This document shows positions 1,231 through 27,492 of a DNA stretch of 64,000 nt, one piece after another. Source of the stretch: an uncultured Pseudomonadota bacterium (lineage in GTDB: Bacteria > Pseudomonadota > Alphaproteobacteria > RF32 > CAG-239); contig CADAAN010000003.1 in assembly GCA_902785935.1 (NCBI GenBank), positions 33,035-97,034 on the forward strand. The letters are read 5' to 3'. The translations under genes and the position numbers were made by a program. The notes below the pieces were generated by a model. It searched no databases and was not told the DNA's origin. It worked only from the letters and a program-made list of their open reading frames with translations. Numbering within the stretch: the stretch's first letter is position 1; each line of letters begins with the position of its first letter.

Positions 1231-1268
1231 GGGATAGACTTCAAAAAAAATAACTCCGTTTCAGCTTA

Positions 1269-3437: not shown

Positions 3438-3458
3438 ATACTTTCACCGGTGGAGGAA

Positions 3459-3666: not shown

Positions 3667-3702
3667 AATTCTGTATTTAGACGCCCAAAGAGCGTGTTTT
3701 TT

Positions 3703-4440: not shown

Positions 4441-4463
4441 ATTTTTTTCCTTTCAATATTGGG

Positions 4464-5408: not shown

Positions 5409-5506
5409 TTTATCTTAAAAAAAACCTTTTTATTAATGATTTATTCGGAATTTAGAAGTATTTTAATAAAAAGTCAATTATATATCGTGAAATATCAAAA
5501 GGTAAA

Positions 5507-6329
5507 AATGCTGAACTTACAAAAAATATCCGTTGTCACGATTATCAACCCCGGCACACGCTTTTACGTTACCGCGGTAAAATCCTTTATGTATCAAACT
5601 TATAAAAATGCTGAATGGATTGTCATCGATAACAGCGGAAAAAATTTGATTAGTGCAAAATTTGCAAAATATGAACAAAAAGACGAGCGTATCAAATTTT
5701 TTGAAAATCCCATGGTTTTAAGTCACGATGAGGTTCTTAAACAAGCGTTTGATTTAGCTCAAGGATCATATATCGCATTTTTGGATCCTCAAGATTATTG
5801 GATTAATGATAAACTATCACGCCAAATCGGTTTTATGATGCGATTTGGTGCACCCTTGTCACATACATCGTATGCTTTCGGCGATGACAAATGTCACTTG
5901 CTCAACATCGGGTGTTATCACATTTCAGGCGATTTTAATCTGCTCAATTATAAAACAAAAAATCCTATTTGCATATCAACATTGATGCTCAACAAAGAGC
6001 GATCTCTTATTGATTTTGAAAAATATGAAGAAAGTGAAAATTCCGATTTAATGACATTTTTCTTAAAAAACGGCCTTATATCTGCCGGTTTGACAGACGT
6101 TATGACTTTATGTCGGCCTGTTTTTGATAAAAAAACTCAATCCAAAATCGATGGCCTTATTCGTGACCTTTTGCTTGCAAACCCCAATGATAAAACAACC
6201 GCTTTGCGCGTTGTTGAACACCATGCCTACAATGCCAAAAATGTTGATGGCTTAAAGCTTGACCCGAGTGTATGTATCGGTCACGAGGTTGTCACAAGTA
6301 TGAACAAATTACGCAATTTTAAGATATAA
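5507..6329 (+). CDS. Divergent glycosyltransferase-2-like protein
   Basis: ISVVTIINPGTRFYVTAVKSFMYQTYKNAEWIVIDNSG resembles a GT2 N-terminus. The start was chosen at the ATG after the fabD overlap. Confidence 0.4.
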
Positions 6330-6341
6330 CAGGTAAATTAA

Positions 6342-8606: not shown

Positions 8607-8634
8607 CAAAAAAAATATCAGCTTTGATAAAAAC

Positions 8635-9108
8635 TCACTCCCAATCGGCAAAATTAAAATTGGTGAGATTAATGACTGTTTTGTGCTTTTTGAGGGCATA
8701 TCTGACGGCGCAATAAGCTCCGCCGATACCGTCGACGTACGAAACGATAAAATCCGCACAATTAACCATATATTGATTGCGCGCGACAATGGCATAACGT
8801 CTTTTGCATCTTTCGACACTGATAGGATAGTCAAAAGTATCATATGGCGGCAAAGGCTTGTATTGCATAAGTTGTGAACCATAAGCCAAAATCAGCCATG
8901 TTCTGATGAAAGGATATTTTTCTTTCAAGTCACGCACAACAGTTCCGGCAATCACGTCAAAAGCGCCATGACCACCCACATAAAACGTATCGACCCCTTC
9001 TTTTTCAATCAAGACGGAAACGATTGTTTTCAATCTGTCAATCCATTCTTCCTGATAGCCCAGATTAAAAGGCTCCCTGTGACCGAAAAAAGCACAAACT
9101 TTTCCCAT
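8635..9108 (-). CDS. SLOG-fold YpsA/DUF1273-like protein
   Basis: CAFFGHREPF...YVGGHGAFDV (GGxGxD Rossmann-like motif) with overall YpsA-like length and pattern. Assignment is tentative. Confidence 0.4.
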   Translation of the reverse strand: MGKVCAFFGHREPFNLGYQEEWIDRLKTIVSVLIEKEGVDTFYVGGHGAFDVIAGTVVRDLKEKYPFIRTWLILAYGSQLMQYKPLPPYDTFDYPISVERCKRRYAIVARNQYMVNCADFIVSYVDGIGGAYCAVRYALKKHKTVINLTNFNFADWE

Positions 9109-9435
9109 TTTTTATTTCCCTGTAAATAAGATTAAAACAAAAAACCACCTCAAAAAGGCGGTCAGGGCGTTCAACAATCACACACTACAATGACTCTCAT
9201 GACCTTTAGGAAAAACCCTTGTACATTCGTCACAAGCACCCCGAACCATTTCTGTCGGGGATATAATTATTTTTGGCAGATATCCAACTGCCAGTAGCGT
9301 AAAGGTCGTTGAAAACCCCGCACCCTTTTCGGGCACTTGATAAAAAAACAAAAATTTTTCTACCCAATCTTATTATCATAAAAAAACAATCTCTTTGTCA
9401 AGAAAAATTTAGCCTCACCTCAATAAAAAAGCAAA

Positions 9436-9470
9436 CGGCTCTTTTAAAAAAGAGCCGCTTTATTTCATTT
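9436..9470. terminator. Hairpin plus T-run terminator downstream of the DUF378 gene
   Basis: cggctcttttaaaaaagagccg followed by a T-rich run on the minus strand. Confidence 0.5.
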
Positions 9471-9480
9471 TAAGTTTTCA

Positions 9481-9693
9481 TTATCTTTTTTCGATGACGA
9501 TTGTATCGGGCGCAAATTGTCCGTAAATCAACCAGATAGCGGACAATCCGGCCAAGATATAAACAATACGTGCCAAAATGCTCATATCGCCGAAAATCAT
9601 CCCGACCAAGTTAAAGTTAAATGCACCGACAAGACCCCAGTTTAAGCCGCCGATGATGGCAAGCCAAAGTGCTATTTTAGAAAGGTAATACAT
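9481..9693 (-). CDS. DUF378-family small membrane protein
   Basis: GLNWGLVGAFNFNLV motif and two TM helices; 70 aa. Confidence 0.7.
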   Translation of the reverse strand: MYYLSKIALWLAIIGGLNWGLVGAFNFNLVGMIFGDMSILARIVYILAGLSAIWLIYGQFAPDTIVIEKR

Positions 9694-9796
9694 ATATGCT
9701 TCTCCTTATAAAAATAAAAATGTTTCCTTTTTCAAGCATTTTTGATATATGCCTTGAATTTTGATTTTCAAGATAAGCACTTTAAAACAAAAGAAA

Positions 9797-9826
9797 CGGC
9801 ACCCGAGGGCGCCGTTTTTTTTATTG
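9797..9826. terminator. Bidirectional hairpin terminator (aacggcacccgagggcgccgtt) between the DUF378 gene and the large lipoprotein gene
   Basis: Inverted repeat with flanking A and T runs. Confidence 0.5.
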
Positions 9827-9896
9827 AAAAAATAACATGTTTCTTAGAGTGATAATCATAACGAAAACAATCAAACATTATGATTTGAACGCTCGA

Positions 9897-12800
9897 CTAT
9901 TTAAAGCGCTTGACAAGCTTGTTGTTGAAGTAGATGGTGCAAATGCCATCTTTGACTTCAATCTTGTATCCATTGACCTTGGAATTCTGTTCCGATTTGG
10001 ACCAGCCCCAAGTGTTCATGGATTTCTCCGTCAGGGAACGAACATTAGTACCATTGTCCTTATAAAGAACCTGGTTGCTCTTATCCTCAACGGTAGCAAG
10101 CTGCCAATTACCGCTCTTGTCGGTGTCATAGCCTGCGACGTAGTCAGCGTCGTAGTAGCTACGCTCGACATAGTTGGCGTTCTTGATGGCGTCGTCGCTC
10201 GGAAGGGCGACATTGTCATTGGCACCGGCAAAGGGGATATAAGCACCCTTATGCTCTTTGGTGACAACGGCAAGACCCTTGATCTTATCAAGGTGACCAT
10301 CTTTGTTGATGTACTTGGAACCATTCCAAGCAGCAGCAACGGCACGGACATCAACGGACAAGATCGTGCCCGGGACGATATCCTCCACCTCAACCTCGAC
10401 CAGAATCTGGCGCTTCACAGCGTCAGAAAGGTTGGCAATAACAGTACCATCAATAGAATATACGCCGTAGAAGTTCTCCTGATAATTGGAGGCTTCATAA
10501 GCGATACCGTTGACGGTCTTGTTACCGGCGGCCACAATGGCATCGGTGCTGTTAGACATAACCATCTGACCATTGAAGGTATGGGTATAATCCCCATCCT
10601 TATAGGTGATGGTCTGATCAAAACCAAAGTCAGCGACATTCGTCTCAGACTTGGCACCATTGCTCATGGTGCTGGTGATTTGACCTTTTTTATTGCTAAC
10701 AGTCCAGTAGCTGTTCGAGCTGCTGGAAGTGCTGCCGTTACGCTCACCGTTGTAGACGGTAGCAAACAGATTATTTGCAGCATACACATCGGTGCCTGCC
10801 TGAGCCGTCAGGAAATAGGCGGGGGTGAAGGGGTCCCTACGAACCTGAACCTTCACATCGTCGGTCACGTCATAGACGTACACAACGGCCTGCCCATTTT
10901 CTACCTTAGGCTCATGCGTGCGCACGGTCTCCGGGGTATAGGTACCAACCATGTTGCCCTCGATGGTGTAGGTGGTCGGGTTGCCAACGGCGGCCTTGGT
11001 CTGCACGCCATCGTCGGTGGAGAGGGTCACCTCGACCTGAGGGGTCAGGGTGACGTTGTTACCGGCAACGGCAGAAGCAACCATATCGACAGCCTTTACT
11101 GCATCGACGGAAGTCGTTGCAAGCGTTACGCCATCAATGCTGACCACTTCGTCCTTCTCTTCAAGACGCAGATATGCGGGTTTGCCTGCAACGTAACCGC
11201 GGAAGTTACGAGCTGTGACCTCATAGGTCTTGCCGTTTTCCTCGACGGTTTTTTTCGGCTCGTTGGCGGTTTCGCCAAAAGATGCCCAGGTGAAGTTGGC
11301 GTTCAGGCCTTCCTTGGTTGCCACGCCAAAGGTGGGCGTCACGGTCAGGGTGGCCGTGATGATCTTTTCCTGAGTATAAGTCTGCTCGGAACCGGCTTTT
11401 TTGACGCCGTTCACGTATTCAGCCTTTTTCACAGTATTCAGACCAGTGCCAACCAGGGTATTCCCGTTCACGTTTGCCGTGAAGGAATAGTCCTTGCTCT
11501 CAACCTTCGTCTCCACGGTGTCGTCGTGCTTGACGAGCACGTCGTAAGCCGTGGAGGCATCCTTCGTCACCTTCTTACCTTCACAGGCAAGAGTGGCGCG
11601 CGTGCTGTTCTTGTAAGCATACGCGTCATAGGTGACATTATTGACGCTCTTGGTGCCATGGGCGGTGGCGGCGACTTTGCCTTCCAGCTCCTCAAAGGAG
11701 ATGCTACACTTGACAGTTACGCTTGCACCATTGTAAGAAAGAGTGGTCTCCTTCTTATTCAGGGTCCAATCGTAAATGTTCTGGGTGCTTTCCTTCTTGT
11801 TGGAGAGGGTGTTCCGATAAGTATTGCCGGAAACACCATTGCTGGTGGTGGCAAAATCGGAAGCACTTGAGGCAATCAGGTCGCTGTGCTCGCGGCCGGC
11901 ATAGCTGTACACAAACTCGTCGTCCAAGGTCTTGGCCAAATACTCCGGCTTAAGGTTGGATTTCATGTAGAAGTCCACCTTTACATCAAAACCATTTTCC
12001 TTAGCGGTAATGGTCTTGACCTGGCGGGTATTCTCGAACACTTCCTCGACCTTTACCCGAATCTCACGACTAGAGGTGGCGGAAAGGTTGATGCTGGCGG
12101 TTTCATTTTTCCAAGTAGCGGTGTATACGGGAGCAATGCTTGCAACGTAGTCGCTCACATTGTAGTATACGCCGTTAATGGTCTGAAGACCTTTTGCAGT
12201 GATGTTCTGCTGAACACCATCGCAAACCAGCTTGCAGATAACAGTTTCGGTGCAATCCTTGTAGCTGTAGGTGATGCTTTCATCACCATACAGGCTAAAG
12301 GTGCTCACGAAGCCTTCGCCCTCATGTCCATTACTGGCAGAGGCATTGAAAGTCATGTTACCTGTTCCTTCAACCTTGGTGCCGGTGGTCTTGTAACCAT
12401 CGGTGGAAGCCAGTACATAGCCATAATTCTGACCCTGTGCAGTAGCCGTTCTTACGAAAGGCTTGCGATCCACTTCGATGATGCCGGAGAGGCTCCATTC
12501 CTCGCGGGTGACAAAAGCTCCCTTGATGGTCTGGTTTTCCTCAGACAGCTCAACCACCATCCAACGACGAATGAATTTGTCCTCAGGATCCGGGGCAACA
12601 AAGAACTTGAGGCTCAGGGTGTCCCTCACCTCAAACTTCTTGCTGGCCTGAGCCTCTTTGCCGGCCTTTACAAAATCGTTAACCACATTTGCCACCAGAG
12701 TATGGATGGCGATGTAGTTGTTGGTTTTGTAGTAACCGCCGTTGTCGGCGGCTACATTGGCCTTCACCAGCGTGTCTTTCACGCTGTGGCTCCAAGCAAC

Positions 12801-13346
12801 ATCCGGGAAGTCCTTTGCCAGGGAATCCTTGGCAAAGTGGGCGTCAGAAGAGCTGTAGGTCAGCTCAAAGTCAGCACCATATTTCCCATTCGAAAGCTTG
12901 GAAGCAAGAGCGCGGACACTCTGCGTTCCATACCAGTCACCGGAGTTCCAGGTGTTGGAAGCTTCCTTAACCTCGCTCTCGGCGTACTTGACACCGTCGA
13001 GCTCGGCCTCAGAAGAAACTTCCTTCTCCACTTTGGCACCACCCTTGACCTCGATGGGTCTGGTCATGGAAGAACCGTACAGGTCTTTTTCACCCGCGGT
13101 CTTCCATGTGTTAGTGGACTTGTACTCGTAGTTCACTACGAGGTCAATCCACTCCCATCCGTAGTGGTTTGTCTTTAGCAGGGTGTCGGTCTGGGGCTTC
13201 GGCTGTTCCGGAGCCTTACCAGGAACATAGCCATAAGCAGAGGTGTTATCCCCTGCCTCAGTCTTAGTCTCCAATTCCATTTTGTTGCAAGCAACCATCG
13301 CGGCCATCATCCCGATAGCGGCGATCACTTTAAAACTTTTTTTCAT
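9897..13346 (-). CDS. Large (1149 aa) predicted surface lipoprotein or adhesin-like protein. Thr/Val/Gly/Asn/Tyr-rich and beta-rich. Compositionally atypical (G+C-rich) relative to the surrounding genome.
   Basis: MKKSFKVIAAIGMMAAMVAC is a signal peptide with a lipobox-like Cys. It is a single uninterrupted ORF. The long antisense ORFs in the six-frame track are artefacts of the high G+C. Confidence 0.7.
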   Translation of the reverse strand: MKKSFKVIAAIGMMAAMVACNKMELETKTEAGDNTSAYGYVPGKAPEQPKPQTDTLLKTNHYGWEWIDLVVNYEYKSTNTWKTAGEKDLYGSSMTRPIEVKGGAKVEKEVSSEAELDGVKYAESEVKEASNTWNSGDWYGTQSVRALASKLSNGKYGADFELTYSSSDAHFAKDSLAKDFPDVAWSHSVKDTLVKANVAADNGGYYKTNNYIAIHTLVANVVNDFVKAGKEAQASKKFEVRDTLSLKFFVAPDPEDKFIRRWMVVELSEENQTIKGAFVTREEWSLSGIIEVDRKPFVRTATAQGQNYGYVLASTDGYKTTGTKVEGTGNMTFNASASNGHEGEGFVSTFSLYGDESITYSYKDCTETVICKLVCDGVQQNITAKGLQTINGVYYNVSDYVASIAPVYTATWKNETASINLSATSSREIRVKVEEVFENTRQVKTITAKENGFDVKVDFYMKSNLKPEYLAKTLDDEFVYSYAGREHSDLIASSASDFATTSNGVSGNTYRNTLSNKKESTQNIYDWTLNKKETTLSYNGASVTVKCSISFEELEGKVAATAHGTKSVNNVTYDAYAYKNSTRATLACEGKKVTKDASTAYDVLVKHDDTVETKVESKDYSFTANVNGNTLVGTGLNTVKKAEYVNGVKKAGSEQTYTQEKIITATLTVTPTFGVATKEGLNANFTWASFGETANEPKKTVEENGKTYEVTARNFRGYVAGKPAYLRLEEKDEVVSIDGVTLATTSVDAVKAVDMVASAVAGNNVTLTPQVEVTLSTDDGVQTKAAVGNPTTYTIEGNMVGTYTPETVRTHEPKVENGQAVVYVYDVTDDVKVQVRRDPFTPAYFLTAQAGTDVYAANNLFATVYNGERNGSTSSSSNSYWTVSNKKGQITSTMSNGAKSETNVADFGFDQTITYKDGDYTHTFNGQMVMSNSTDAIVAAGNKTVNGIAYEASNYQENFYGVYSIDGTVIANLSDAVKRQILVEVEVEDIVPGTILSVDVRAVAAAWNGSKYINKDGHLDKIKGLAVVTKEHKGAYIPFAGANDNVALPSDDAIKNANYVERSYYDADYVAGYDTDKSGNWQLATVEDKSNQVLYKDNGTNVRSLTEKSMNTWGWSKSEQNSKVNGYKIEVKDGICTIYFNNKLVKRFK

Positions 13347-13687
13347 AACGCGTTATTGTTTTTGTTTTACTTACTTATTATGACATCCAAACACAACCAT
13401 AGGGGCGCTTGGATGGAAAAGTCACATTATGATTAGGCACACCTTAAGAAACATGAAAAATTTTTCCATCTTTTTCATTTAATTCACATAAGCTTAGACC
13501 TAATCTCTATAATTCAGTCTTTAACATAGCACAATTTGAATCAAAAAACAAGCAAAAAAATGCACTTTTTTGATTTTTTTGTTTATTTTTTGTACAAAAT
13601 ACCGAAAATAAGTTCTAATGCACTGAAAATACGTATTTTTTTAGAAAATCCGTCCTATTATTTCAGCATCCGGCAAAAACGCTGATT

Positions 13688-15160
13688 TTAGCCGCCGATT
13701 TGCTCAGGCAAAGCCTCTTCATTGGCAAGATTGCCGAACTGCGCATATTGTCCGTTCCAAAAAAGTTTGACCGTACCGACCGGACCGTGACGCTGTTTGC
13801 CGATAATCACTTCCGCCAAATTAGCCGTTTCACGATCGCGTTTTTGCCATTCGGCAATGCGCTGTTGCAAGTGTTCTGCCGTTTCATTTTGCTTTTGTTT
13901 GGGCTCTTCGTTGTGGATATAATAATTTTCTCTAAAGACAAACATCACGACATCGGCATCTTGCTCAATAGACCCCGACTCGCGCAAATCCGACATCAGC
14001 GGCCGCTTATCGTCACGGCTTTCAACACCGCGGTTTAACTGCGAAAGCGCAATCACCGGCACATCAAGCTCTTTTGCCAAAATTTTCAGCCCGCGTGAAA
14101 TTTCGGACAATTCCTGCACACGATTGACTTCTCCGCGTCTTGAAGGGCCTGAAATCAATTGAATATAATCAATCACAATCAGCCCCAAACCTTTTGTGCG
14201 TTTTAAGCGCCTCGCCCGGGTGCGAATCGCGTTGATGGTCAGCCCCGGCGTATCATCGATATAAAGCGGAATATTTTCAAGCTCTCTTACGGCCGCAGCG
14301 ATTCGCGTAAATTCGGCATTATTGAGCTCACCGGTGCGCATATTTTGCCCCGGCGTTTGTGTCACGGTCGATAAAATACGCGACGCCAGCTCATCCGAGC
14401 TCATTTCAAGCGAAAAAAACGCCACGCCTTTGTCTTTTTTATCAATGCTTTTTTCGCGGCTCATAAATTCTGCCACATTATAGGCAATATTGGTTGCAAG
14501 CGCCGTTTTTCCCATGGCGGGACGGCCTGCAATGATAATCAGATTTGACTTTGTCAGCCCGCCCAAGCGCCTGTCCAAGCGCTCAAGCCCCGTCGGCAAA
14601 CCCGACAATTTATCATCGCGCTGAAAAGCCTGTTCAATATAGCCGAGCGTCGATGTCAACGCTTTTGAAAAATCGATAAAATCACTTTGCGCCTGCCCCT
14701 GATCCGCAAGATGAAACAAATTTTGTTCCGCCTCTTCAATCTGGTCATTGGCCGTCAAATCAGCCGATTCGGTCATCGCATTGTTAACGATTTTATAGCC
14801 CGTATCAATCAGCTCACGGCGCAAATATTTGTCATAAATAAACTGTCCGTAATACTCAACATTTGTCATCGGTGAAGCACTGTCCGCAAGCCGAACAAGA
14901 TAATTTATTCCGCCGACATCCGCAAGCGTACCCTGCTGTTCAAAATAGTTTTTTAAGGTAATGACATCAGCGGATCTGTCGTGCATAATGATATTTGAAA
15001 TCACCTCAAAAATTTTGGCATGCACCGGATCGGCAAAATGCTTCGGCTGTAAAAATTCAGCCACTTTTTCAAAAGCCTTGTTATTGGCAAGCAAGGCCCC
15101 GAGCAAAGCTTGCTCGGCTTCGATATTTTTAGGCAATTTATCTAAATCAGGTGTTTCCAT
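13688..15160 (-). CDS. dnaB: Replicative DNA helicase
   Basis: N-terminal IEAEQALLGALL... and a RecA-like domain with GRPAMGKTA Walker A; 490 aa. Confidence 0.9.
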   Translation of the reverse strand: METPDLDKLPKNIEAEQALLGALLANNKAFEKVAEFLQPKHFADPVHAKIFEVISNIIMHDRSADVITLKNYFEQQGTLADVGGINYLVRLADSASPMTNVEYYGQFIYDKYLRRELIDTGYKIVNNAMTESADLTANDQIEEAEQNLFHLADQGQAQSDFIDFSKALTSTLGYIEQAFQRDDKLSGLPTGLERLDRRLGGLTKSNLIIIAGRPAMGKTALATNIAYNVAEFMSREKSIDKKDKGVAFFSLEMSSDELASRILSTVTQTPGQNMRTGELNNAEFTRIAAAVRELENIPLYIDDTPGLTINAIRTRARRLKRTKGLGLIVIDYIQLISGPSRRGEVNRVQELSEISRGLKILAKELDVPVIALSQLNRGVESRDDKRPLMSDLRESGSIEQDADVVMFVFRENYYIHNEEPKQKQNETAEHLQQRIAEWQKRDRETANLAEVIIGKQRHGPVGTVKLFWNGQYAQFGNLANEEALPEQIGG

Positions 15161-15360
15161 TTTTCATCGCTCTTTCAAACAAAATTCGACATAAGGCTAT
15201 ATGTGCATCATTTTTATCGAAAATGCGCCTAAAAAATTTTTTTGCCTGTTAATAATGGGGATAATTTCTCAAAACCTGCCCTTGATACAACTTTACAGGT
15301 GCCCGATACTTGAATAAACTCTTGTAACACAGGCACGATTGAGGGGTTTATAAAAAAACA

Positions 15361-15723
15361 TCAGGCTTTTTTGAGTTCGCGCCGACCTAAAACAGCGTTG
15401 ATGTAATCAAAATTTTTAAAGGCACCGTATGCCGCATCAAAGCTTTTTTGATCAAGTGTATAAAAAACCTGATTTGCCATTTTTTTGATAGCACTGTCAA
15501 TGCGCGCAAAAGCCTCGTTATAATCTGCATTATAGCGATTTTTATCTTTTTTAGCCACCAGATTGTGATAAGCCGCAACGACTTTAACGGTTTCTTCAGC
15601 CGGATTTTGATAACCTTTTTTCTCAAAGTCATGCATAATTTGTGCCATCGTCATGTAGTAGCACTTGTTTGTTAAGATATTTCGCTGCATATGGTTATTT
15701 GAATTGATAATCATACCGACCAA
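15361..15723 (-). CDS. Hypothetical protein (120 aa)
   Basis: ORF only; no recognisable motif. Confidence 0.35.
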   Translation of the reverse strand: MVGMIINSNNHMQRNILTNKCYYMTMAQIMHDFEKKGYQNPAEETVKVVAAYHNLVAKKDKNRYNADYNEAFARIDSAIKKMANQVFYTLDQKSFDAAYGAFKNFDYINAVLGRRELKKA

Positions 15724-15792
15724 AACCTTTCCATAAAAAGATATATAGCATTTTTAACAAACATTTGCAAGCAAAAATTTGATTTTTTCAAA

Positions 15793-15845
15793 AGCATAAA
15801 AAAAGCCACCCTCGGTGGTTTTTTATGGCGTATCCGGCGAGGCTC
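15793..15845. repeat. Direct repeat of the tRNA-Arg 3' end (tggcgtatccggcgaggctc) together with its downstream terminator hairpin. The second copy of 15984-16038.
   Basis: About 53 of 55 nt are identical between 15793-15845 and 15984-16038. Confidence 0.7.
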
Positions 15846-16018
15846 TCTGCTCAAGTTTGTAAGGCGCTTTTTCCTGCGCTGTCGCTTGTCAAACCGCCAA
15901 ACAAACCCCCGCCTGACATCAAAAAACTTTCCACCGGAAACTTTTTTGAAAGTCAGCTTCTCAGTTCTCGCCTCGCGCCTTTGAAGCATAAAAAAACCAC
16001 CCTTCGGTGGTTTTTTTA

Positions 16019-16095
16019 TGGCGTATCCGGCGAGGCTCGAACTCGCAACCTTCGGCGTCGGAGGCCGACACTCTATCCAATTGAGCTACGGATAC
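16019..16095 (-). tRNA. tRNA-Arg (anticodon CCG), 77 nt, genome-encoded CCA
   Basis: Manual fold of GTATCCG/CGGATAC acceptor stem, anticodon stem TCGGC/GCCGA with loop CTCCGAC, T-arm GCGAG-TTCGAGC-CTCGC, 3' GCCA. Followed by a hairpin plus T-run terminator. Confidence 0.8.
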
Positions 16096-16241
16096 ATTTT
16101 CTTTTGCCTTTATAACACGTTTTTTTGACTTCGCCAGCTTTTTTTTCATTTTTTTAAATTATTTTGCTTGACATCTTCATAAAATGTTTGTATGTAATGG
16201 CAACAAAGTTGTTTTCTATTTGATATAAAAGGATTTTTAAA

Positions 16242-16523
16242 ATGGCTAAAAAATGTGATTTAACAGGCACCGGCGTTCAGAGCGGGAATAATGTCAGCCA
16301 CGCAAACAATCGTACACGCCGTCGCTTTATGCCCAATTTGCATGTTGTTTCTTTGCTTAGTGAAACATTGAACAAAGTTTTTAAGCTCAAGATTTGCACA
16401 AAAACTTTGCGTTCGATCGAGCACAATGGTGGTTTAGATTCTTATCTTGAAAATACGGCTTCTAAGAATTTGACACCTGAGGCAAAAGCAATCAAAAAAC
16501 AAATTGCAAAAAACAAAAAATAA
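16242..16523 (+). CDS. rpmB: 50S ribosomal protein L28
   Basis: MAKKCDLTGTGVQSGNNVSHANNRTRRRFMPNLH matches the L28 consensus. A TTGACA-17-TATGTA promoter lies upstream. Confidence 0.85.
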   Translation: MAKKCDLTGTGVQSGNNVSHANNRTRRRFMPNLHVVSLLSETLNKVFKLKICTKTLRSIEHNGGLDSYLENTASKNLTPEAKAIKKQIAKNKK

Positions 16524-16703
16524 ATAAACTGTTTTTTTTCAAATCAGCAGGGTCTTTGTTCCCTGCTTTTTTTTGCATATTAAAACATCTGTAATGCGAC
16601 AAGTATTTTTGCCCTCTTGATTATTTTGTAATCGCTCTTGAAATTAAAAAAAAATAAGTTAAAAAAGCCGTATTGTTTATTTTTTAAGGGATCTTTTTTT
16701 AAG

Positions 16704-18362
16704 ATGAATAACGAAAGTAAAAACCTTTATACCGCAATTGTTTTATCCGTGTTGATTATCTTCGGTGTCAATCACTTTTTTGCAAAACAAACAAGGCCTG
16801 TTGAGGCACAAAATGTACAAATTGAGCTTCCACAACAGGCACAGATGCCTGAAGTCAATGCGTATTTAGATTTAAAAGATGCTCTAAAAGCGCATAAGCG
16901 TGTCCATATCACAACACCTGATTTAAATGCTTCTGTCCGTCTTCAAGGCGCACAGATTGATTTTGCCTCATTGAACAAATATAAGCAAACGCTTGAACAA
17001 AACAGCCCCGATGTCACGCTTTTAAGCCCTGTCGGTACGCAAGCGCCTTATTTTGCTCAGTTTGGATTTCTCTCAATGGATAAAGAACTGAAATTGCCTG
17101 ATGAAAAAGCGTTTTGGTATGCATCAAAAGACAAATTAACCCCAAATGCGCCCTTAACACTTGTTTGGGACAATGCCGAGGGGCTTAAATTTACGCGCAC
17201 AATCTCAATTGATGAGCATTATCTGATGCAAATTCATGATAAGGTTGAAAACATGATGGGCAAGCCTGTTACGCTTTATCCTTATGGCCGTATTTATCGT
17301 GCTTTTGATGAAAAATATGCGCAAGAGCGCTCTGTTGTGCATGAGGGCATGACGGGTGTTATCAATGGAACGTTGAAAGAATTTACCTTAAAAGATGTCA
17401 AAGAAGGTTCTCCGAAATCTTTTTCTTCTCAAGAGGGATGGGCTGGTTTTTCGGACAGATATTGGTTTTCGGCCTTTATTTTGGACGATAATGAGGACAA
17501 TACGATTCAATTTTCCAAGACAGGCGATAAAAGTTATCAGGTTGATTATCGCAAATCACCGATAACGATTGAGCCGAACGGCGAAAAAAATACATCTGTA
17601 CGTTTTTTTGTCGGTGCCAAAGAAATCAAATTATTGGATAAATATACCAAACAAAACGGTATCAAAAAATTTGATTTAGCCGTCGATTTTGGCTGGTATT
17701 ACTTTTTGACAAAGCCGTTTTTCTATATTTTGGATTTTCTTTACAAAATCATCGGCAATATGGGCTGGGCGATTTTGCTTTTTGCCGCACTGTTAAGGCT
17801 TTTGATGTTCCCGATTGCAAGCAAATCGTTTGACAGTATGTCCAAAATGCGCAAGATTCAGCCGAAAGTTGTCGCTTTGCAAGCCATGTACCAAAATGAT
17901 AAAATCATGCTTCAGCAAAAGACGATGGAACTTTATAAAAAAGAAAAAATCAATCCGGCATCGGGGTGCTTGCCTGTTTTTATCCAGATACCGATTTTCT
18001 TTTCTTTGTATAAGGTTTTAAACATCGCCATCGAAATTCGTCATGCACCGTTTATCGGTTGGATTAAGGATTTATCCGCGCCTGACCCTCTGACAATATC
18101 CGTATGGTCACATATTCCGTTACCCTATATTTTAGATATCGGTGTGTGGCCGATTTTGATGGGGCTTACGATGTGGGTTCAGCAAAAGCTTAATCCGGCG
18201 CCGGCCAACAAAGATCAGGCCAGAATGTTTGCGATGATGCCGTTTATATTTACCTTGATGCTCGGGCATTTTGCCTCAGGTCTTGTGATTTACTGGACTT
18301 TAAGCAATATCTTGTCAATAGCTCAGCAAAAGGCAATTATGTACAAAAACGGGGTTAAATGA
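16704..18362 (+). CDS. yidC: Membrane protein insertase YidC
   Basis: N-terminal TM, a large periplasmic domain, and a C-terminal 5-TM core with conserved hydrophilic groove residues. The stop overlaps the engB start. Confidence 0.9.
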   Translation: MNNESKNLYTAIVLSVLIIFGVNHFFAKQTRPVEAQNVQIELPQQAQMPEVNAYLDLKDALKAHKRVHITTPDLNASVRLQGAQIDFASLNKYKQTLEQNSPDVTLLSPVGTQAPYFAQFGFLSMDKELKLPDEKAFWYASKDKLTPNAPLTLVWDNAEGLKFTRTISIDEHYLMQIHDKVENMMGKPVTLYPYGRIYRAFDEKYAQERSVVHEGMTGVINGTLKEFTLKDVKEGSPKSFSSQEGWAGFSDRYWFSAFILDDNEDNTIQFSKTGDKSYQVDYRKSPITIEPNGEKNTSVRFFVGAKEIKLLDKYTKQNGIKKFDLAVDFGWYYFLTKPFFYILDFLYKIIGNMGWAILLFAALLRLLMFPIASKSFDSMSKMRKIQPKVVALQAMYQNDKIMLQQKTMELYKKEKINPASGCLPVFIQIPIFFSLYKVLNIAIEIRHAPFIGWIKDLSAPDPLTISVWSHIPLPYILDIGVWPILMGLTMWVQQKLNPAPANKDQARMFAMMPFIFTLMLGHFASGLVIYWTLSNILSIAQQKAIMYKNGVK

Positions 18363-18982
18363 TGGAAAGTGCGCATCAAAATTCTGTTCAAAAGCTTTTT
18401 TCGGTGCCTCCGAAATTTATGCTTTCGGTTGCAAAACTTGAACAATTGCCGCCGGATGATAAAAACGAGGTCGCCTTTGCCGGTCGTTCAAATGTCGGTA
18501 AATCAAGTTTGATTAATGCGCTGTTTTTCAGAAAAGACGTGGCAAAAACATCATCGACTCCGGGGCGCACGCAGCAACTCAACTATTTTGATTTTTTGGG
18601 CAAGATGTACCTTGTCGATTTACCCGGCTATGGTTATGCCAAGGCTCCTATTGCCGAAGTTAAACGTTGGCAAAATGTTTTAACAACCTATTTAAAAGGC
18701 AGGGTCAATTTAAGGCGCGTTTTTTTGGCGATTGATAGCCGAATCGGGATTAAAGATACGGATGAAGAAATTTTTAAATTGCTTGACACGGCGGCCGTAC
18801 CTTATCAGATTGTTTTAACGAAAATTGATAAAATATCTGCCGTCGCGCTTGAAAAAATAAAAAAGCAAATACTTGAAAAATTAGAAACACATCCGGCAGC
18901 ATTCAATGAAATTTTAGCCACAAGTTCCGAAAAGAAAATCGGCCTTGATGATTTGCGCACACAGATCGCATCGTTTTTATAA
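18359..18982 (+). CDS. engB: Ribosome biogenesis GTP-binding protein EngB/YihA
   Basis: GRSNVGKSSLINAL G1 motif, DLPGYG, TKIDK. Confidence 0.85.
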   Translation: MMESAHQNSVQKLFSVPPKFMLSVAKLEQLPPDDKNEVAFAGRSNVGKSSLINALFFRKDVAKTSSTPGRTQQLNYFDFLGKMYLVDLPGYGYAKAPIAEVKRWQNVLTTYLKGRVNLRRVFLAIDSRIGIKDTDEEIFKLLDTAAVPYQIVLTKIDKISAVALEKIKKQILEKLETHPAAFNEILATSSEKKIGLDDLRTQIASFL

Positions 18983-18991
18983 AAAAATAAT

Positions 18992-19214
18992 TTGACAATA
19001 TACTCTATTTATGTGATAATCAAAGCGTAACCAAAATGGTTGCGGTGTCTAATTAACACATTTGTCGTATAGCTCCTTTAAAAGAGGAGTTTCTGAGATA
19101 AGTGCATTTTGCATCGAATAAAGAAGACTGTACGACAACAGTTAATTAGCTCCTCCGTTTTAGGTTATTTGAAACGGAATTTTTTTTAAAGTATGAAAAA
19201 ATAGGAGAATAAAT
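18992..19214 (+). promoter_or_regulatory. Promoter (TTGACA-17 bp-GATAAT) plus a conserved ~190-nt structured 5' leader shared with the paralogous gene at 36749-37612
   Basis: Position-by-position similarity to the reverse complement of 37613-37809. Hairpins (aaccaaaatggtt; ctcctttaaaagaggag) are conserved or covarying. Confidence 0.5.
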
Positions 19215-20007
19215 ATGAGAAAAAGTCAATTTATATTTGTATTAATGCTTAGCACAGCTTTAGGTTTAGCAAATGTTTATGCCGGCGGTTCGTGCGCACC
19301 TGATGGTGACACAACAAGCACATGCCATTGGGAAATTGAAAACAGAGTCCTGACAATTTCGGGTTCAGGTGCGATGGTGAATTATAGTTCACCATCTATG
19401 TATCCTTGGTATTCACAAAAAGATTCTTATACATCCGTTGTGGTTGAGGGAGCTAATGAAACAACAGGAACGACAGGTGTTACTTCAATCGCAAAAGTGG
19501 CATTTCGAGGCAACAACCTGACCTCGGTTGTGATTCCCGATTCTGTTACTTCAATCGGACTGGGTGCATTTTATAGCAACAACCTGACCTCGGTTGTGAT
19601 TCCGGATTCTGTTACTTCAATCGGAAGGATGGCATTTTGGGGTTCTCAAGCAACGGATTTAGTCTGCAGTGCCGAAAATTTGCAAAGATATTTGGGTGCA
19701 GCTGGCGCATTTGTAAATTCGGGCGACATTAACCTCTCTTGCACAACAGGCATTTGTAAATTCGGGCGACATTAACCTCTCTTGCACAACAGGTGATTGT
19801 CAAGCCGTTTTGGAAGCTTGGGATACAGCAAAAGGTACAAATTACGCATCGCGCGCAAAAACAATCCTGACAAATCAGGACGGAAGTAAGACAATTTACG
19901 ATTTGAGCGGAAATTTGCTCGGCTATAAAGGCAAGCGCATTTACACCGTTGAAGAGGCCAATCAAGTTGCAGGCAAAGTCAATTCGGTCAAGATAAGGTA
20001 TCGATGA
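19215..20007 (+). pseudogene. BspA-type leucine-rich-repeat secreted protein, disrupted by a frameshifting 43-bp tandem duplication
   Basis: Signal peptide, BspA-like LRRs (VVIPDSVTSIG... twice), a stop after the duplication, and the C-terminal conserved domain (KRIYTVEEANQVAGKVNSVKIRYR) continuing in another frame. Removing one 43-bp copy restores a 249-aa ORF. Confidence 0.65.
19708..19793. repeat. Perfect 43-bp tandem duplication (catttgtaaattcgggcgacattaacctctcttgcacaacagg x2) inside the LRR gene
   Basis: 19708-19750 is identical to 19751-19793. 43 is not a multiple of 3. Confidence 0.85.
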
Positions 20008-20010
20008 GGG

Positions 20011-20150
20011 TGAGATCCGCGGGACTTCGCCCGCGGATAACAATAAGGGACAGGTCGCCCGATGTGGGGCACGCCCGTTAATGACAGGATAAATGCGGGG
20101 CACGCCCGCAGATAACAAAGGAATACACCCGCGGACAACCATAGGGCTGT
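20011..20150. repeat. G+C-rich degenerate repeat cluster: a hairpin ccgcgggacttcgcccgcgg, ggggcacgcccg twice, and cccgcRgaYaacaa three times
   Basis: Seen by eye in an otherwise AT-rich intergenic region immediately 3' of the LRR pseudogene. Confidence 0.4.
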
Positions 20151-20274
20151 TTTGTTTCGTTCAATATAGGTCAAATCACTATTTTTTTAATCTTAAATGT
20201 GATTTTGTTGTTGCAATTTATTTTATTTGATTTATTAGTGTTTGGTATAAAGAACTAATATTTTGAGGATAAAT

Positions 20275-21858
20275 ATGAACGAATATCGTACACACACCTG
20301 CGGCGAGCTCCGCAGCACGGATGTCGGCAAAAGGGTTTTGCTTGCCGGCTGGATACATCGCAAACGCAATTTAGGCAATTTGTGCTTTGTTGATCTTCGA
20401 GATCATTACGGCATCACACAGTGCGTGTTCGATTCGTCCTCGGATTTGTTTGAAAAAATTCAAAACCTGCGTGTTGAGAGCGTCATCGGTGTTGAAGGTG
20501 AAGTCGTGATGCGTGAAAGCATCAATAAAAATATCAAAACGGGCGATATCGAAATCAAAGTGCAAAATCTTGTTGTGCATTCTGAAGCGGACCAAATACC
20601 TTTTCAGGTTGCATTTGAAGATGATTCGCCCGAAGAATTGCGCCTCAAATACCGCTTTTTGGATTTAAGACGTGAACGTGTTCACAACAATATTATGCTG
20701 CGCTCAAAAGTCATCAAACGTATGCGTGAACTCATGATTGAGCAAGGTTTTACAGAATATCAAACTCCGATTTTGACGGCCTCTTCTCCTGAAGGTGCGC
20801 GTGACTTTTTGGTGCCTTCGCGCATTAATCCGGGCAGATTTTACGCATTGCCCCAGGCGCCGCAACAATTCAAGCAACTTTTGATGGTTTCAGGCTTTGA
20901 TAAATATTTTCAGATTGCGCCGTGTTTCAGGGATGAAGATCCGCGTGCTGACCGTTCTCCGGGCGAATTTTACCAACTTGATATGGAGATGAGTTTTGCC
21001 ACCCAAGAAGATGTTTTTGCTGTCTTAGAATATACAATGGGTACGATTTTTGAAGAATTTTCAAACGGCAGAAAAGTTTCAAAAGCACCATTTATCCGCA
21101 TTCCGTTTAAAGAAGCGATGCTTAAATACGGCTCGGATAAACCAGATTTAAGAAATCCGCTTGTTATTCAAGACGCCACAGGGTTGTTTGGTCATTCGGG
21201 ATTTAGCGTTTATGATACAAAAGTTGCCGAGGGCGAAAAAATCAGAGCGATTGTTTTGCCTGCATGCGGTGACAAACCACGTTCATTTTTTGATAAATTT
21301 GACGCTTTTGCCAAAGAAAATAATATGGGCGGCATGGCCTATATCGCTTTTTCTTCAAACGGGGCAAAGGGTCTTGCAAAACTTTTTGATGAGGTCAAAT
21401 TGGCTGAAATCAAAAACAGCTTAAATATCAAAGACGGCGATGCCGTGCTTTTGATGGCGGGCAAAGAAAAAGTTTTGAACAAATTTGCGGGTCTTACACG
21501 CAACAAGGCCGGCGAAGCGCTTGATTTGTTTGAAAAAGATGCTTTCAAATTGTGCTGGATTGTTGATTTTCCGTTTTATGAAGAAAATGAAGAAACGGGT
21601 GCGGTTGAATTTTCACACAACCCGTTCTCAATGCCTCAAGGCGGTATGGACGCTTTATTAAACAAAAATCCGCTTGATATTTTGGCTTATCAATATGATA
21701 TGGTATGTAACGGGGTGGAATTAGCATCCGGTGCAGTACGCAATCACAGGCCAGAAATTATGTATAAAGCCTTTGAAATTGCAGGTTATGATCACAGCGT
21801 TGTGGACTTGATCGTACGGTTATGCTCCTTTTGGATGAGCCGATTATCAGAGATGTGA
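20275..21858 (+). CDS. aspS: Aspartate--tRNA ligase. The C-terminal motif-3 region ([23 protein letters not shown]...) is in the -1 frame and ends at 21971, so there is an apparent frameshift.
   Basis: N-terminal OB fold and class IIb catalytic core. Frame A stops at 21858, while the conserved GLDR...RDVI.FP C-terminus is readable only in another frame from about 21804. Confidence 0.75.
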
Positions 21859-22078
21859 TTATCTTCCCCTTAAACGGCAAGGCTCAGGATTTGTTGATGC
21901 AGGCTCCGAACACCGTTTCCGAGGAGCAGTTAAAAGAGCTTCATATTAAACTTGATTTAGAAGAAAAATAAAATTTCTTAAGTCATTACTTTGATGTCAT
22001 TTTATTTTTAGGCGCAAATGCCGAGAATTAAAAAAAGTTGTGTTTGCGCTTGAAAAGAGCATTAAAAAGGATATAAAA

Positions 22079-22900
22079 ATGCAAAAATTCAGCTTTCATA
22101 CGCATACTGTTTTTTCAGACGGCAAAAACAGTATTCAAGAGATGGTTGAAAAAGCAAAGCTGCTCGGCTTTGATAAAATCGGTATTTCAGATCACTTGAT
22201 TGTGCATAAAAACATCACTCAAACGCGTTCGTATGAAGAGCAAAAAAGAATCTATCACCAAAGTTTTGATGAAGTTGTCGCAGCGTGCAATAAACATGCC
22301 GAGGATATCAGAAAAGCACAAAAAACTTATGGTGTGAAGACTTTTGTGGGCTACGAGGTTGATTATTTTACATATAAAGGTTGGGAAGATGAATTAAGAG
22401 ATTTTTTAACAAAAATCGATTATGATTATATCATCAGCGGCAATCATTTTTTGATGAGTGAAGATGGTGAAAAAATCTTCGATATATGGCGCTTTAAAGA
22501 TTGTGACGACGCTCTCAAAGGAGATATAAAAACGTATATCAAACGCCATTTTGAAACACTTGCAAAAGCTGTTCGTTCAAATTTATTTATGTTTTTGGCG
22601 CATCCCGATTATGTGCAAAAAATTGAGGTTTATCGCGAGCAGGATTATCAAAGTGAAATCAATGCGTTGATTGACGCTTTAATGCAGACAAACACACCCT
22701 GCGAAATCAGCACAAAAGGCTTAAGAAAATTCGGGCATTTTTTTCCGTCAGATCATATTTTGCAAAAAATGCTTAAACAAAACATTGCCTTTATCATCAG
22801 TGATGACGCACACAACATTGATGAGCTTGGCATATATTTTGAAAAAGCAGAAGAACAACTTGCCTCGTTTGGCTGCAAAAAAAGGCTTATACCCGAATAG
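22079..22900 (+). CDS. PHP-domain phosphoesterase (HisJ-like histidinol-phosphatase family)
   Basis: FSFHTHTVFSDG...ISDH motifs of the PHP fold. Confidence 0.6.
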   Translation: MQKFSFHTHTVFSDGKNSIQEMVEKAKLLGFDKIGISDHLIVHKNITQTRSYEEQKRIYHQSFDEVVAACNKHAEDIRKAQKTYGVKTFVGYEVDYFTYKGWEDELRDFLTKIDYDYIISGNHFLMSEDGEKIFDIWRFKDCDDALKGDIKTYIKRHFETLAKAVRSNLFMFLAHPDYVQKIEVYREQDYQSEINALIDALMQTNTPCEISTKGLRKFGHFFPSDHILQKMLKQNIAFIISDDAHNIDELGIYFEKAEEQLASFGCKKRLIPE

Positions 22901-23023
22901 GCAGCCTTAATCCATCCGGTCAATTAAAAAATTATCAACCAAGGATTATATTGTTTTGAGCTTTGACGGGCATATATAAATGTCGGTATTTAACTTTAAT
23001 ATTCAAATAAAGGAGAAAAAAAG

Positions 23024-23143
23024 ATGGCTTGTAAATGTCCGTCATCAAAATCTGAAAAATCAAAGAGCTCAACCGTTCAATCCGAAAGAGAAGAACAATC
23101 TTCTTTAAAATCGGAAAACAGCTCTAAAAAAAGCACAAAATAA
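23024..23143 (+). CDS. Small hydrophilic ORF (39 aa, MACKCPSSKSEKSKSSTVQSEREEQSSLKSENSSKKSTK)
   Basis: Strong AAAGGAG RBS 7 nt upstream, followed by a terminator hairpin. It was not in the ORF track because it is under 60 aa. Confidence 0.3.
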   Translation: MACKCPSSKSEKSKSSTVQSEREEQSSLKSENSSKKSTK

Positions 23144-23168
23144 ATAATGATATAAAAAACAAAAAAAA

Positions 23169-23200
23169 TATCCCCTGATATGAAACGGGGATATTTTTTA
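23169..23200. terminator. Bidirectional terminator (atatcccc-N11-ggggatat with A and T runs)
   Basis: Perfect 8-bp stem, A-run upstream and T-run downstream. Confidence 0.6.
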
Positions 23201-23214
23201 TTGTTTCAAGAAAA

Positions 23215-23664
23215 CTATTTTTTCTTTGCTTCTTTTTTTGTTTCTTTGAGTTCAGAAGTGCAGTGCGGGCAACGCGTTGCATTGATTGAAATTTCAGAAA
23301 AACAATACGGGCAGGTTTTTGTTGTCGGCTCTGCTTTTTCTTCAGCTTTTTCTTTGGCAATCATCTTTTCTTGCAAAGTATTGATGGCTTTGATAAGCAA
23401 AAAGACGGCAAATGCAACAATCAAAAAGCTGATCAGCGCATTGATAAATGCACCGTATCTGATAGCGACATCATCCGTTAAGGCAAATTTGAGCTCAGAA
23501 AAATCAACTTTACCCAAAAGCAATCCGATCGGCGGCATCAAAACATCTTCGACGAGCGAATTGACGATTTTGCCGAAAGCAGCACCGATGATGATACCGA
23601 CAGCCATATCGATGACATTGCCGCGCATCGCAAACTTTTTGAATTCATTAAAAAAACTTTTCAT
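23215..23664 (-). CDS. mscL: Large-conductance mechanosensitive channel with a C-terminal Cys4 zinc-ribbon extension
   Basis: [34 protein letters not shown] is an MscL signature. The tail carries CPYC...CPHC. Confidence 0.85.
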
Positions 23665-23853
23665 AAGTAAATACTCCGATGATTAATTTTATAAACGATT
23701 ATAGTGATACGCTATTTGGTTAAAATAGTCAACATCTTATTTTGCAAAAATAGTCTTCAGATGCGCAAAATTTAAATTTTTGCCCTTGACAAATATTCTG
23801 ATTTGGATAAAATGAAAGAAAATTGATATTATGTTAAATTTAAAATTTTTAGT

Positions 23854-24399
23854 ATGGAGTTAAGTTATTATTCAGAAATCCGTCAGAAAGCAGATGCAAA
23901 AATTCCGACGGTGAACGATTTGACACCGGCAATCGTTAATCATCTTAAAAAAGCAACGGATGTCATCAAAAACGAAGGCAAAGAGGGCTTTAGGGCTTTT
24001 TACGAAGCTCATAAAAATGACTTTAATGGCTTTGCCTGGTTTGTCTATGACCACCGTGGTGTGTATGATCGTCAACGTTTTTTGTACAACTGGCAGACGC
24101 TGACCCCGTATGTTGAGGCAATTTTCAAACTTGGGCTCAAAGCCCCTCATCGTGAACGCTTTATTGAGTTGATCAATCGGTATGATTTGGTTATCTATGC
24201 CCTGGACGACAAGGATGTTGTGCGTTTTGCCCTGAGCAATTTAAACTTCTACATCGAAAGCAATATGTTTATCTCTACCGTTGAGGGGAAAAACTGCAGG
24301 CTTATCGAACAAATGTATGAAGAATTGAAAAAGTATGCCGATACGCCCTATTCGCCGCAATGGTGCCTTTATGTGGTATTGAAAAAATACCTTGACTAA
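23854..24399 (+). CDS. Hypothetical protein (181 aa)
   Basis: ORF with a TTGACA-17-GATAAAAT promoter upstream; no recognised domain. Confidence 0.45.
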   Translation: MELSYYSEIRQKADAKIPTVNDLTPAIVNHLKKATDVIKNEGKEGFRAFYEAHKNDFNGFAWFVYDHRGVYDRQRFLYNWQTLTPYVEAIFKLGLKAPHRERFIELINRYDLVIYALDDKDVVRFALSNLNFYIESNMFISTVEGKNCRLIEQMYEELKKYADTPYSPQWCLYVVLKKYLD

Positions 24400-24508
24400 A
24401 AAAACACCCCTTTATCTTTTGCGATAAAGGGGCTTGTTTTATGATATCAAAAAATAAAAATATATTTCCTTTATTGTTTTTTAAGAAAAACATTTATATA
24501 ATATTTTC

Positions 24509-24700
24509 AGCACTGAAAAGTGCGGGGCTTCTAAAAGTCTTACCATACACGGCAAAGGATATGTGCCGTAAAAATATATCCCCGATGATGGCTCGGGGAG
24601 CTTATAGCGTATGTTCAAGGATTTATCCTAAAGGTTATAAGAGTCAGCTCGTAATGATGATTGTTTTACTCTCCGACCGCTTTTTAAAGTGGTCTTTTTT
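24509..24700 (+). ncRNA. Candidate small RNA or cis-acting leader, copy 1 (predicted transcription start to terminator)
   Basis: -35 at 24474-24479, -10 at 24497-24502, hairpins gcac-tgaaaa-gtgc, cggca-N9-tgccg, ccccga-N7-tcgggg, terminator at 24675-24700. Confidence 0.35.
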
Positions 24701-24795
24701 CTTTAACCACAGTCTAAGGAGAATAAAATGATATCAAAAAATAAAAATCTGTTTCTTTTATTGTTTTTTAAGAAAAACATTTATATAATATTTTC

Positions 24796-24984
24796 AGCAC
24801 TGAAAAGTGCGGAGTTTCTAAAAGCTCTTAACTACTCGGCAAAGGATATGTGCCGTAAAAATATATCCCCGAATTTTTGGTCGGGGTGCTTTCAGCGTAT
24901 GTTCAAGGTTTTCCCAAAGGCTGAAAGGTCATTAGTAGTTATGATTTTTAGACTCTCCGACCGCTTTTTGAGTGGTCTTTTTTC
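24796..24984 (+). ncRNA. Candidate small RNA or leader, copy 2
   Basis: -35 at 24761-24766, -10 at 24784-24789. Same hairpins with loop changes (ccccga-atttttgg-tcgggg). Terminator at 24959-24984. Confidence 0.35.
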
Positions 24985-25078
24985 TTTAACCACAGTCTAA
25001 GGAGAATAAAATGACATCAAAAAATAAAAATTTGCTTCTTTTATTGTTTTTTAAGAAAAACATTTATATAATACTTTC

Positions 25079-25210
25079 AGCACTGAAAAGTGCGGGGCTT
25101 AAAACAGCCTTACCATACACGGCAAAGGATATATGCCGTAAAAATATATCCCCGATGATGGCTCGTATGATTTTTAGACTCTCCGACCGCTTTTTAAAGT
25201 GGTCTTTTTT
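25079..25210 (+). ncRNA. Candidate small RNA or leader, copy 3 (internally shortened), directly preceding the RBS of the 25238 gene
   Basis: -35 at 25044-25049, -10 at 25067-25072, terminator at 25185-25210. Confidence 0.35.
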
Positions 25211-25728: not shown

Positions 25729-27492
25729 TTATTTATAAAGCGGGCGCTTTTGGTATTTTGTATGAAGCAAATGGTGCGACTTTTCATCACCCGGTTTGCC
25801 TAAATAATCAGCGTAGAGCTTTTGAATCGATTCGTTCTTGTGTGACAGTCTGTTTTGAGCACACTGATCTTCACAGTTCAAGCCTCTTGAACGCAATTTT
25901 CTGATTTCATCATTAATGCCCCAAGGCTTATCAAACGTTGCACCCATCACACGCGGTTGACCACCGCCGGCAATACATCCGCCGGGGCAAGCCATCACTT
26001 CAATAAAGTGATACGGCAATTCTCTGCCTTCAGCGATTGCCTTATTGATTTGTTCCATCACGGGTTCAACATTGCCGACGCCGTTGACAACAGCAATGCG
26101 CACTTTTGTCCCTTTAATATCAACTTCGGCAACCTTAACAGCTTCTAAACCTTCAATTGCGTGAAAATTGAGCTCACCCAATTCTTCACCCGTGATGAAG
26201 AAATAAGCCGATCTTAAAGCCGCCGTCATCACACCGCCGGTTACACCGAAAATCGTCGCCGCACCTGAATACTCACCCAAAGGATTGTCAGCAGGTTCTT
26301 CTTTCAAGTTCTTAAAGTTGATGCCGGCTTTTTTTATCATCTTGGCAAGCTCACGTGTCGTGATAACTTCATCAACATCCTGATATCCTGATGATGACAT
26401 TGTTTCATCACGTGCAATTTCCCACTTTTTGGCTGTGCAAGGCATGACTGATACAACTTTAACTTTTGCTGCATCAACACCGGCTTTTTGTGCCCAATAT
26501 GTTTTAGCTATTGCGCCAACCATTTCATGCGGCGATTTGCAAGATGACAAATTCGGGATATTTTCGGGATAATATTTTTCGAGATAGTCCACCCATGCCG
26601 GACAGCATGAAGTGAACATCGGTAAATTGTCGTTAGACGTAAAGCGTTTGATAAACTCTGATGCCTCTTCCATAATCGTTAAATCGGCGCCGAAGTTTGT
26701 GTCAAAAACCTTTGCAAAACCCAAACGACGCAATGCCGCATAAATTTTGCCCGTTAAATTTTCACCAAAATCAAAACCGAATTCTTCACCCAAAGCGACT
26801 CTGACAGCAGGTGCAATTTGCACCACAGTCGTCAATTCTTTATCGGCAAGCATGGCTTCAACCTTTGAGGTGTTGTCATAATCTGTAATAGCACCTGTCG
26901 GACAGTGCGCTGCGCATTGACCACATTTGATACACGGCGAATCGCCGAGTTTTGTATCATTTGCACCGGTGACTTTGGTTACAAAACCACGATTTAAGTA
27001 GCTTAAAGCCCACACATTTTGCACATTCTGACAAATGCTGACGCATCTGCCGCAAACAATACATTTTTGAGGGTCTAAAACAATGGCTTTTGTCGTGTCA
27101 TCTTTCGGCTCGGATGAAAGCATACGGATAATCTCGTTTTGGTCAATACCCATTTGCTCGCTCATGGCCTGCAATTCGCAAGAGCCGCTTCTTGAGCAGT
27201 TTAAGCAATCATTCGGATGATGGCTCAAAATCAGCTTCAAAACCGTCTTTCTGATTTCCTGTAACTCGGCATCGTTCGTGATGATTTCCATATTTTCGGA
27301 AACAGGCGTACAGCATGAACGCATAATTCTTCCGCCAACTTTAACGATACACATACCACATCCGGCACTTGGGTCAACATCGGGGTGTTTGCAAAGTGTC
27401 GGAATTTCTACCTGAACACTGCGCGCAGCGTCCAAAATGCTTGTGCCGGCAGGAACTTCAACATCCATATTATTGATTTTTAATTTAACCAT
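25729..27492 (-). CDS. hydA: [FeFe]-hydrogenase catalytic subunit (HydA/HndD type)
   Basis: N-terminal 2Fe-2S ferredoxin, 4Fe-4S Cys clusters, H-cluster motifs (TSCCPAW, MPCTAKK, CPGGCIAGGGQP). Confidence 0.85.
   Translation of the reverse strand: MVKLKINNMDVEVPAGTSILDAARSVQVEIPTLCKHPDVDPSAGCGMCIVKVGGRIMRSCCTPVSENMEIITNDAELQEIRKTVLKLILSHHPNDCLNCSRSGSCELQAMSEQMGIDQNEIIRMLSSEPKDDTTKAIVLDPQKCIVCGRCVSICQNVQNVWALSYLNRGFVTKVTGANDTKLGDSPCIKCGQCAAHCPTGAITDYDNTSKVEAMLADKELTTVVQIAPAVRVALGEEFGFDFGENLTGKIYAALRRLGFAKVFDTNFGADLTIMEEASEFIKRFTSNDNLPMFTSCCPAWVDYLEKYYPENIPNLSSCKSPHEMVGAIAKTYWAQKAGVDAAKVKVVSVMPCTAKKWEIARDETMSSSGYQDVDEVITTRELAKMIKKAGINFKNLKEEPADNPLGEYSGAATIFGVTGGVMTAALRSAYFFITGEELGELNFHAIEGLEAVKVAEVDIKGTKVRIAVVNGVGNVEPVMEQINKAIAEGRELPYHFIEVMACPGGCIAGGGQPRVMGATFDKPWGINDEIRKLRSRGLNCEDQCAQNRLSHKNESIQKLYADYLGKPGDEKSHHLLHTKYQKRPLYK

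Follow-up and report, generated by a model that had tools for sequence, protein, structure and literature searches.

The window analysed here, i.e. the whole stretch of 64,000 nucleotides, belongs to a contig assembled from metagenomic DNA of an uncultured alphaproteobacterium of the rumen. It carries on its forward strand aspS, the gene for the aspartate--tRNA ligase (AspRS), which is normally a single-copy and essential gene. As written in the window, the aspS open reading frame runs from the ATG at 20275 to a TGA at 21856-21858 and encodes a protein of 527 aa (P0001). The gene is made up of two parts which do not belong to the same reading frame. The 5' block (20275..21807, +) comprises codons 1-511 of a bacterial-type AspRS and encodes the anticodon-binding (OB) domain, motifs 1 and 2 within the catalytic core, and the GAD insertion. 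The 3' block (21808..21971, +) begins with the second base of codon V535 and continues through D536, the motif-3 arginine, which is R537 in the numbering of the intact protein, and the C-terminus to the true stop codon; its frame is shifted by 1 nt relative to the 5' block. A second aspS was not found within the 64-kb window.

The truncated protein is easily recognised as an AspRS. In the Pfam search all three expected domains were matched (PF01336, OB; PF00152, class II core; PF02938, GAD), and the 527-aa frame passed both curated AspRS cut-offs, with 666.8 bits for the NCBIfam profile NF001750 (cut-off 443) and 514.5 bits for TIGR00459 (cut-off 373.85). The NF001750 match was, however, divided: the first piece of the gene covered profile positions 2-511 and the second piece positions 537-588, which means that about 25 profile positions are gone, and not one base. 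A continuous in-frame PPHxG...G(L/V/I)DR motif-3 region is thus absent from the aspS of the window, as profile positions 512-536 are gone and the remainder lies in another frame.

A protein search with the window AspRS recovered P0001 itself, found on one contig only, and P0002, an intact AspRS of 588 aa which has the PPHxG...G(L/V/I)DR region in frame and is 100 % identical to P0001 in the part common to both. P0002 is encoded on scaffold_366, a 107-kb contig of the ENA assembly ERZ28613383. The 5' block was 100 % identical to residues 1-511 of P0002 (tblastn), and the DNA of the 3' block was 100 % identical to positions 11604-11767 of the corresponding scaffold_366 locus (L001). P0002 aligned end to end with the AspRS enzymes of Thermus thermophilus (PDB 1EFW, 6HHV) and Escherichia coli (1C0A, 1EQR), with E values of about 1e-140 to 1e-126, and shares with these bacterial-type (class IIb) enzymes the OB, catalytic and GAD domains. 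Based on the alignment with 6HHV/1EFW, the residues missing from the window, 512-534, correspond to residues 507-529 of the T. thermophilus AspRS, directly before the motif-3 LDR. Compared to the T. thermophilus and E. coli enzymes, the window gene lacks this segment and has its motif-3 arginine out of frame, a difference which we ascribe to the assembly and not to the organism.

The region in question is well conserved. Among the 120 best homologues, KFG..PPHxG..GxDR was kept in 119, the sole exception being the window's own protein. The scan of GTDB representatives with the intact protein as query gave relatives at 84 % identity or less only. The closest species representatives were RGIG3474 (84 %) and RUG10918 (79 %), both MAGs of rumen or gut Alphaproteobacteria, and aspS was continuous in all of them.

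DNA alignment with scaffold_366, as part of the comparison of the whole window, showed that 70 nt (AGCAAGTTCGGCGGTATGATTAATGCTTTCCATTACGGCGCACCGCCGCACGCAGGTGCTGCTCCGGGTG) are absent at exactly 21807|21808 (21807..21808, +), with identical flanks on both sides. The missing 70 nt span codons S512-G534 together with one base, the first, of V535, and with them the PPHxG stretch and the beginning of motif 3 are lost. As 70 = 3 x 23 + 1, the two blocks are left with a frame offset of one base, and the missing segment creates a tail of 16 out-of-frame residues with the premature TGA at its end (21808..21858, +). No microhomology was present at 21807|21808, and a search for the missing 70 nt elsewhere in the window gave nothing beyond chance matches, none of them longer than 13 nt. 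No RNA element accounts for the break, since Rfam and tRNA scans of the window gave tRNA-Arg(CCG) only. In class II synthetases motif 3 and its arginine are required for ATP binding, and thus an AspRS encoded as in the window should be inactive.

The original prediction, made from the window alone, had correctly described what can be read there: the aspS frame ends at 21858, the conserved C-terminus is open in the -1 frame as far as 21971, and the -1 frame contains a TGA at 21789. From this it had placed the frame switch within 21792-21803, a position which has to be replaced by that of the 70-nt gap once the intact allele is aligned. Its reading of AGYDHSV as a degenerate PPHGG stretch was mistaken, as AGYDHSV is native and identical in P0002, where PPHAG lies downstream of it; it is this PPHAG that is absent from the window. 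Similarly, 'CGLDR' does not represent motif 3: CGL arises by chance where the translation crosses the junction, and the true protein reads ...APGVDR.

In order to compare the whole window, 77 kb of scaffold_366 were rebuilt from five overlapping loci. Scaffold_366 was collinear with all 64,000 bases of the window, at 99.98 % identity. The small differences were 9 SNPs and a single change in length, A9/A10, of a poly-A run. Structural differences were only three, all within 5.4 kb (19.7-25.2 kb): 43 nt more, 70 nt less and 60 nt less in the window, with 0-1 nt of microhomology at the three junctions. In the remaining 58.6 kb of the window there was no structural difference. Relative to scaffold_366 the window is therefore composed of four blocks, 1-19750, 19750-21807, 21808-25165 and 25165-64000. 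At all three sites scaffold_366 is intact and its sequence is biologically coherent. The A9/A10 change is the sole single-base indel between the two sequences in 64 kb and is located at position 16655, in an intergenic poly-A upstream of yidC, with A9 in the window and A10 in scaffold_366.

The first of the neighbouring joins is a perfect 43-nt tandem duplication (GCATTTGTAAATTCGGGCGACATTAACCTCTCTTGCACAACAG x2; 19707..19792, +), for which the tandem repeat finder reported 2.0 copies at 100 % identity and which was also seen in the alignment. The unit occurs as a single copy both in scaffold_366 and in a 42-kb MEGAHIT contig described below (L012). The duplication causes a frameshift in an LRR_5 gene just upstream of aspS, which encodes 186 aa in the window compared to 249 aa in scaffold_366. 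The 43 nt probably represent a contig overlap which was left untrimmed. The A+T-rich spacer upstream of aspS contains a cluster of G+C-rich hairpins (20015-20145), CCGCGGG-ACTTCG-CCCGCGG and, twice and 31 nt apart, GGGGCACGCCCG. This 12-mer has no other occurrence in the window; the fold z-score of the hairpins was only -1.9 and they had no Rfam match.

The other neighbouring join is a junction (25164..25165, +) lacking 60 nt that are found in scaffold_366, as seen in the alignment, in the blastn blocks and in the structure of the tandem array at this site. The array (24441-25165; L001 14237-15097) consists of three copies of a 283-nt unit with approximately 88 % identity, and the 60-nt gap falls in the third copy, at the end of the array. 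Each copy carries an ORF of 76-96 aa starting with M(I/T)SKNKN...LLFFKKNIYII, and no Pfam or Rfam match was obtained for the unit ORFs.

Other assemblies were inspected at the same points. The MEGAHIT contig L012 (ERZ27280375 k141_1391528) has the same sequence as the window as far as 21803, and its last 139 nt (13400-13538) then carry a different aspS allele, with 26 mismatches and an intact frame. The identity of this tail was 81 % with the local strain and 84 % with L094, a relative at 98 %. The tail being the allele of L094 was considered and rejected, as the identity was only 84 %; judged by these identities the tail derives from another relative. A second contig of the same assembly (L003; MEGAHIT, 3192 nt) begins with 61 foreign bases (1-61), which were not found in the window or in the other loci, and its match then begins inside the 70-nt segment. 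A contig from Logan (L004; ERR3275101, 2701 nt) starts inside the 70-nt segment as well; the Logan contigs of this run were 100 % identical to scaffold_366. Since the other end of both L003 and L004 falls within the 283-nt array or at its start, they correspond to the window block 21808-25165. The breaks or switches in these three contigs indicate that the aspS site is a meeting place in the assembly graph for sequences of related strains or species. L003 and L012 are themselves public MEGAHIT contigs with chimeric ends at the aspS motif-3 region. In scans of JGI metagenomes neither the deletion junction nor the intact allele was matched.

Traces of a further allele were seen a short distance downstream. 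Six of the 9 SNPs are located within 40 nt (25951-25990), in a [FeFe]-hydrogenase-like gene (25729-27492, - strand), and all six are synonymous third-position changes, while in the 38 kb around this patch there was only one other SNP compared to scaffold_366. The six positions represent the allele of another strain, acquired via recombination or via haplotype switching by the assembler, and show that alleles are mixed in the same neighbourhood.

Taken together, the break in aspS is very probably a local assembly or scaffolding error, made where related strains tangle the assembly graph. The organism's real aspS would be intact and encode a bacterial-type AspRS of 588 aa. We infer that it was the assembler or scaffolder which made the joins, with no support from reads. 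The four collinear pieces would have been joined with their ends unresolved, so that one join kept a 43-nt overlap twice and the other two lost 70 and 60 nt, the gaps being closed to zero. The 70-nt loss would hit the PPHxG/motif-3 region, where related co-occurring strains or species may tangle the graph and where the contigs of short-read assemblers end or change to another allele. The frameshift and the 527-aa P0001 would accordingly be artefacts of the join and not a property of the cell. This interpretation is supported by the intact twin, by the clustering of the three joins and by the contig ends of other assemblies at the same spots. The site also coincides with ambiguity in the graph, as seen from the allele switch of L012 at 21803/21804, the ends of L003 and L004, and the 283-nt array. 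Among the possibilities raised by the original prediction, a sequencing or assembly indel is thus in part borne out: an assembly indel is the favoured class of explanation, but its size and position, 70 nt at 21807|21808, are other than was expected.

Errors of this kind have been described for metagenome assemblies, including unsupported local consensus, overlaps kept twice where scaffolds are joined, and repeats with wrong content (Chen et al. 2020, PMC7111523). Within 5.4 kb the window has one instance of each type. It differs from the scaffold errors of that study in that no Ns mark the joins, none being present anywhere in the window, a point which speaks against scaffold joins, and the likeness is drawn here from sequence comparison. 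Such errors are known to put incorrect protein-coding sequences into databases (Chen, Anantharaman, Shaiber, Eren and Banfield 2020, PMC7111523).

It is also conceivable, though unlikely, that the 70-bp deletion is a real allele, i.e. that aspS is inactivated in the sampled strain or in part of the cells and that the assembler has reproduced this variant faithfully. The window contig is an independent assembly, 9 SNPs away from scaffold_366, De Bruijn assemblers normally require reads that bridge a junction, and strain heterogeneity is present at the aspS site. However, with S512-G534 removed and R537 out of frame the enzyme should have no activity, and aspS is normally both essential and single-copy, with no other copy visible in the window. 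In addition, two more clean indels, one of them gene-breaking, lie within 5.4 kb of sequence which is otherwise 99.98 % identical, other assemblies have contig ends or repeats at all three sites, and every other assembly carries the intact allele. A decaying gene backed up by another copy, which had been proposed in the original prediction, is not needed to explain the data, since the gene is intact in another assembly of the same population, with 99.98 % identity. A stronger form of the real deletion, in which a rumen strain or a sizeable subpopulation has a dead aspS as its only visible copy and survives by means of an unseen second AspRS or another supply of Asp-tRNA, would further take the 43-nt duplication and the 60-nt deletion as the outcome of a local burst of illegitimate recombination. 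We regard this as highly improbable.

A single-base sequencing or consensus error would agree with the frame offset of one base, but one inserted base would leave the protein without profile positions 512-536, and such an error is refuted by the alignment with the intact allele. A 1-nt indel, for which the original prediction had proposed to look, does not restore a full-length protein either, since 23 conserved codons and one base are missing.

Programmed frameshifts are found in the bacterial genes prfB (+1) and dnaX (-1), and as in these genes the conserved parts of a single protein are divided between two frames in the window. Programmed -1 ribosomal frameshifting or recoding, which would join both frames into a functional AspRS, has nothing more in its favour than the conserved C-terminus being open in the -1 frame, and it is refuted: unlike in prfB and dnaX there is no slippery site, no XXXYYYZ heptamer being present at 21770-21815, TGA codons close both the -1 frame (21789) and the 0 frame (21856), the split arrangement is not conserved, as aspS is continuous in the closest relatives, and the 23 conserved codons, including PPHAG, are physically missing and no change of frame supplies them. 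The frameshift mechanism put forward in the original prediction fails for the same reasons.

The break in aspS is thus almost certainly no feature of the organism, and it does not point to new biology. The local assembly error matters in practice, as the truncated 527-aa 'AspRS' and the truncated LRR protein from the window contig are already in public protein collections, and aspS could wrongly be scored as a pseudogene when the completeness of this MAG is estimated or its metabolism inferred. Where conserved catalytic motifs are common to co-occurring relatives, metagenome assemblers lose tens of bases or insert them twice, which then looks like a frameshift.

Some other features were observed in the window. 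An 86-nt tandem repeat (3461-3639; 2.1 copies, 90 % identity) is intergenic. An ORF of 1149 aa on the - strand (9897-13346) has no Pfam domain on record, and is overlapped on the opposite strand by two long open frames, 9837-11870 and 11886-13178. The tRNA-Arg(CCG) gene, the sole RNA gene detected in the window, is located at 16019-16095 on the - strand.
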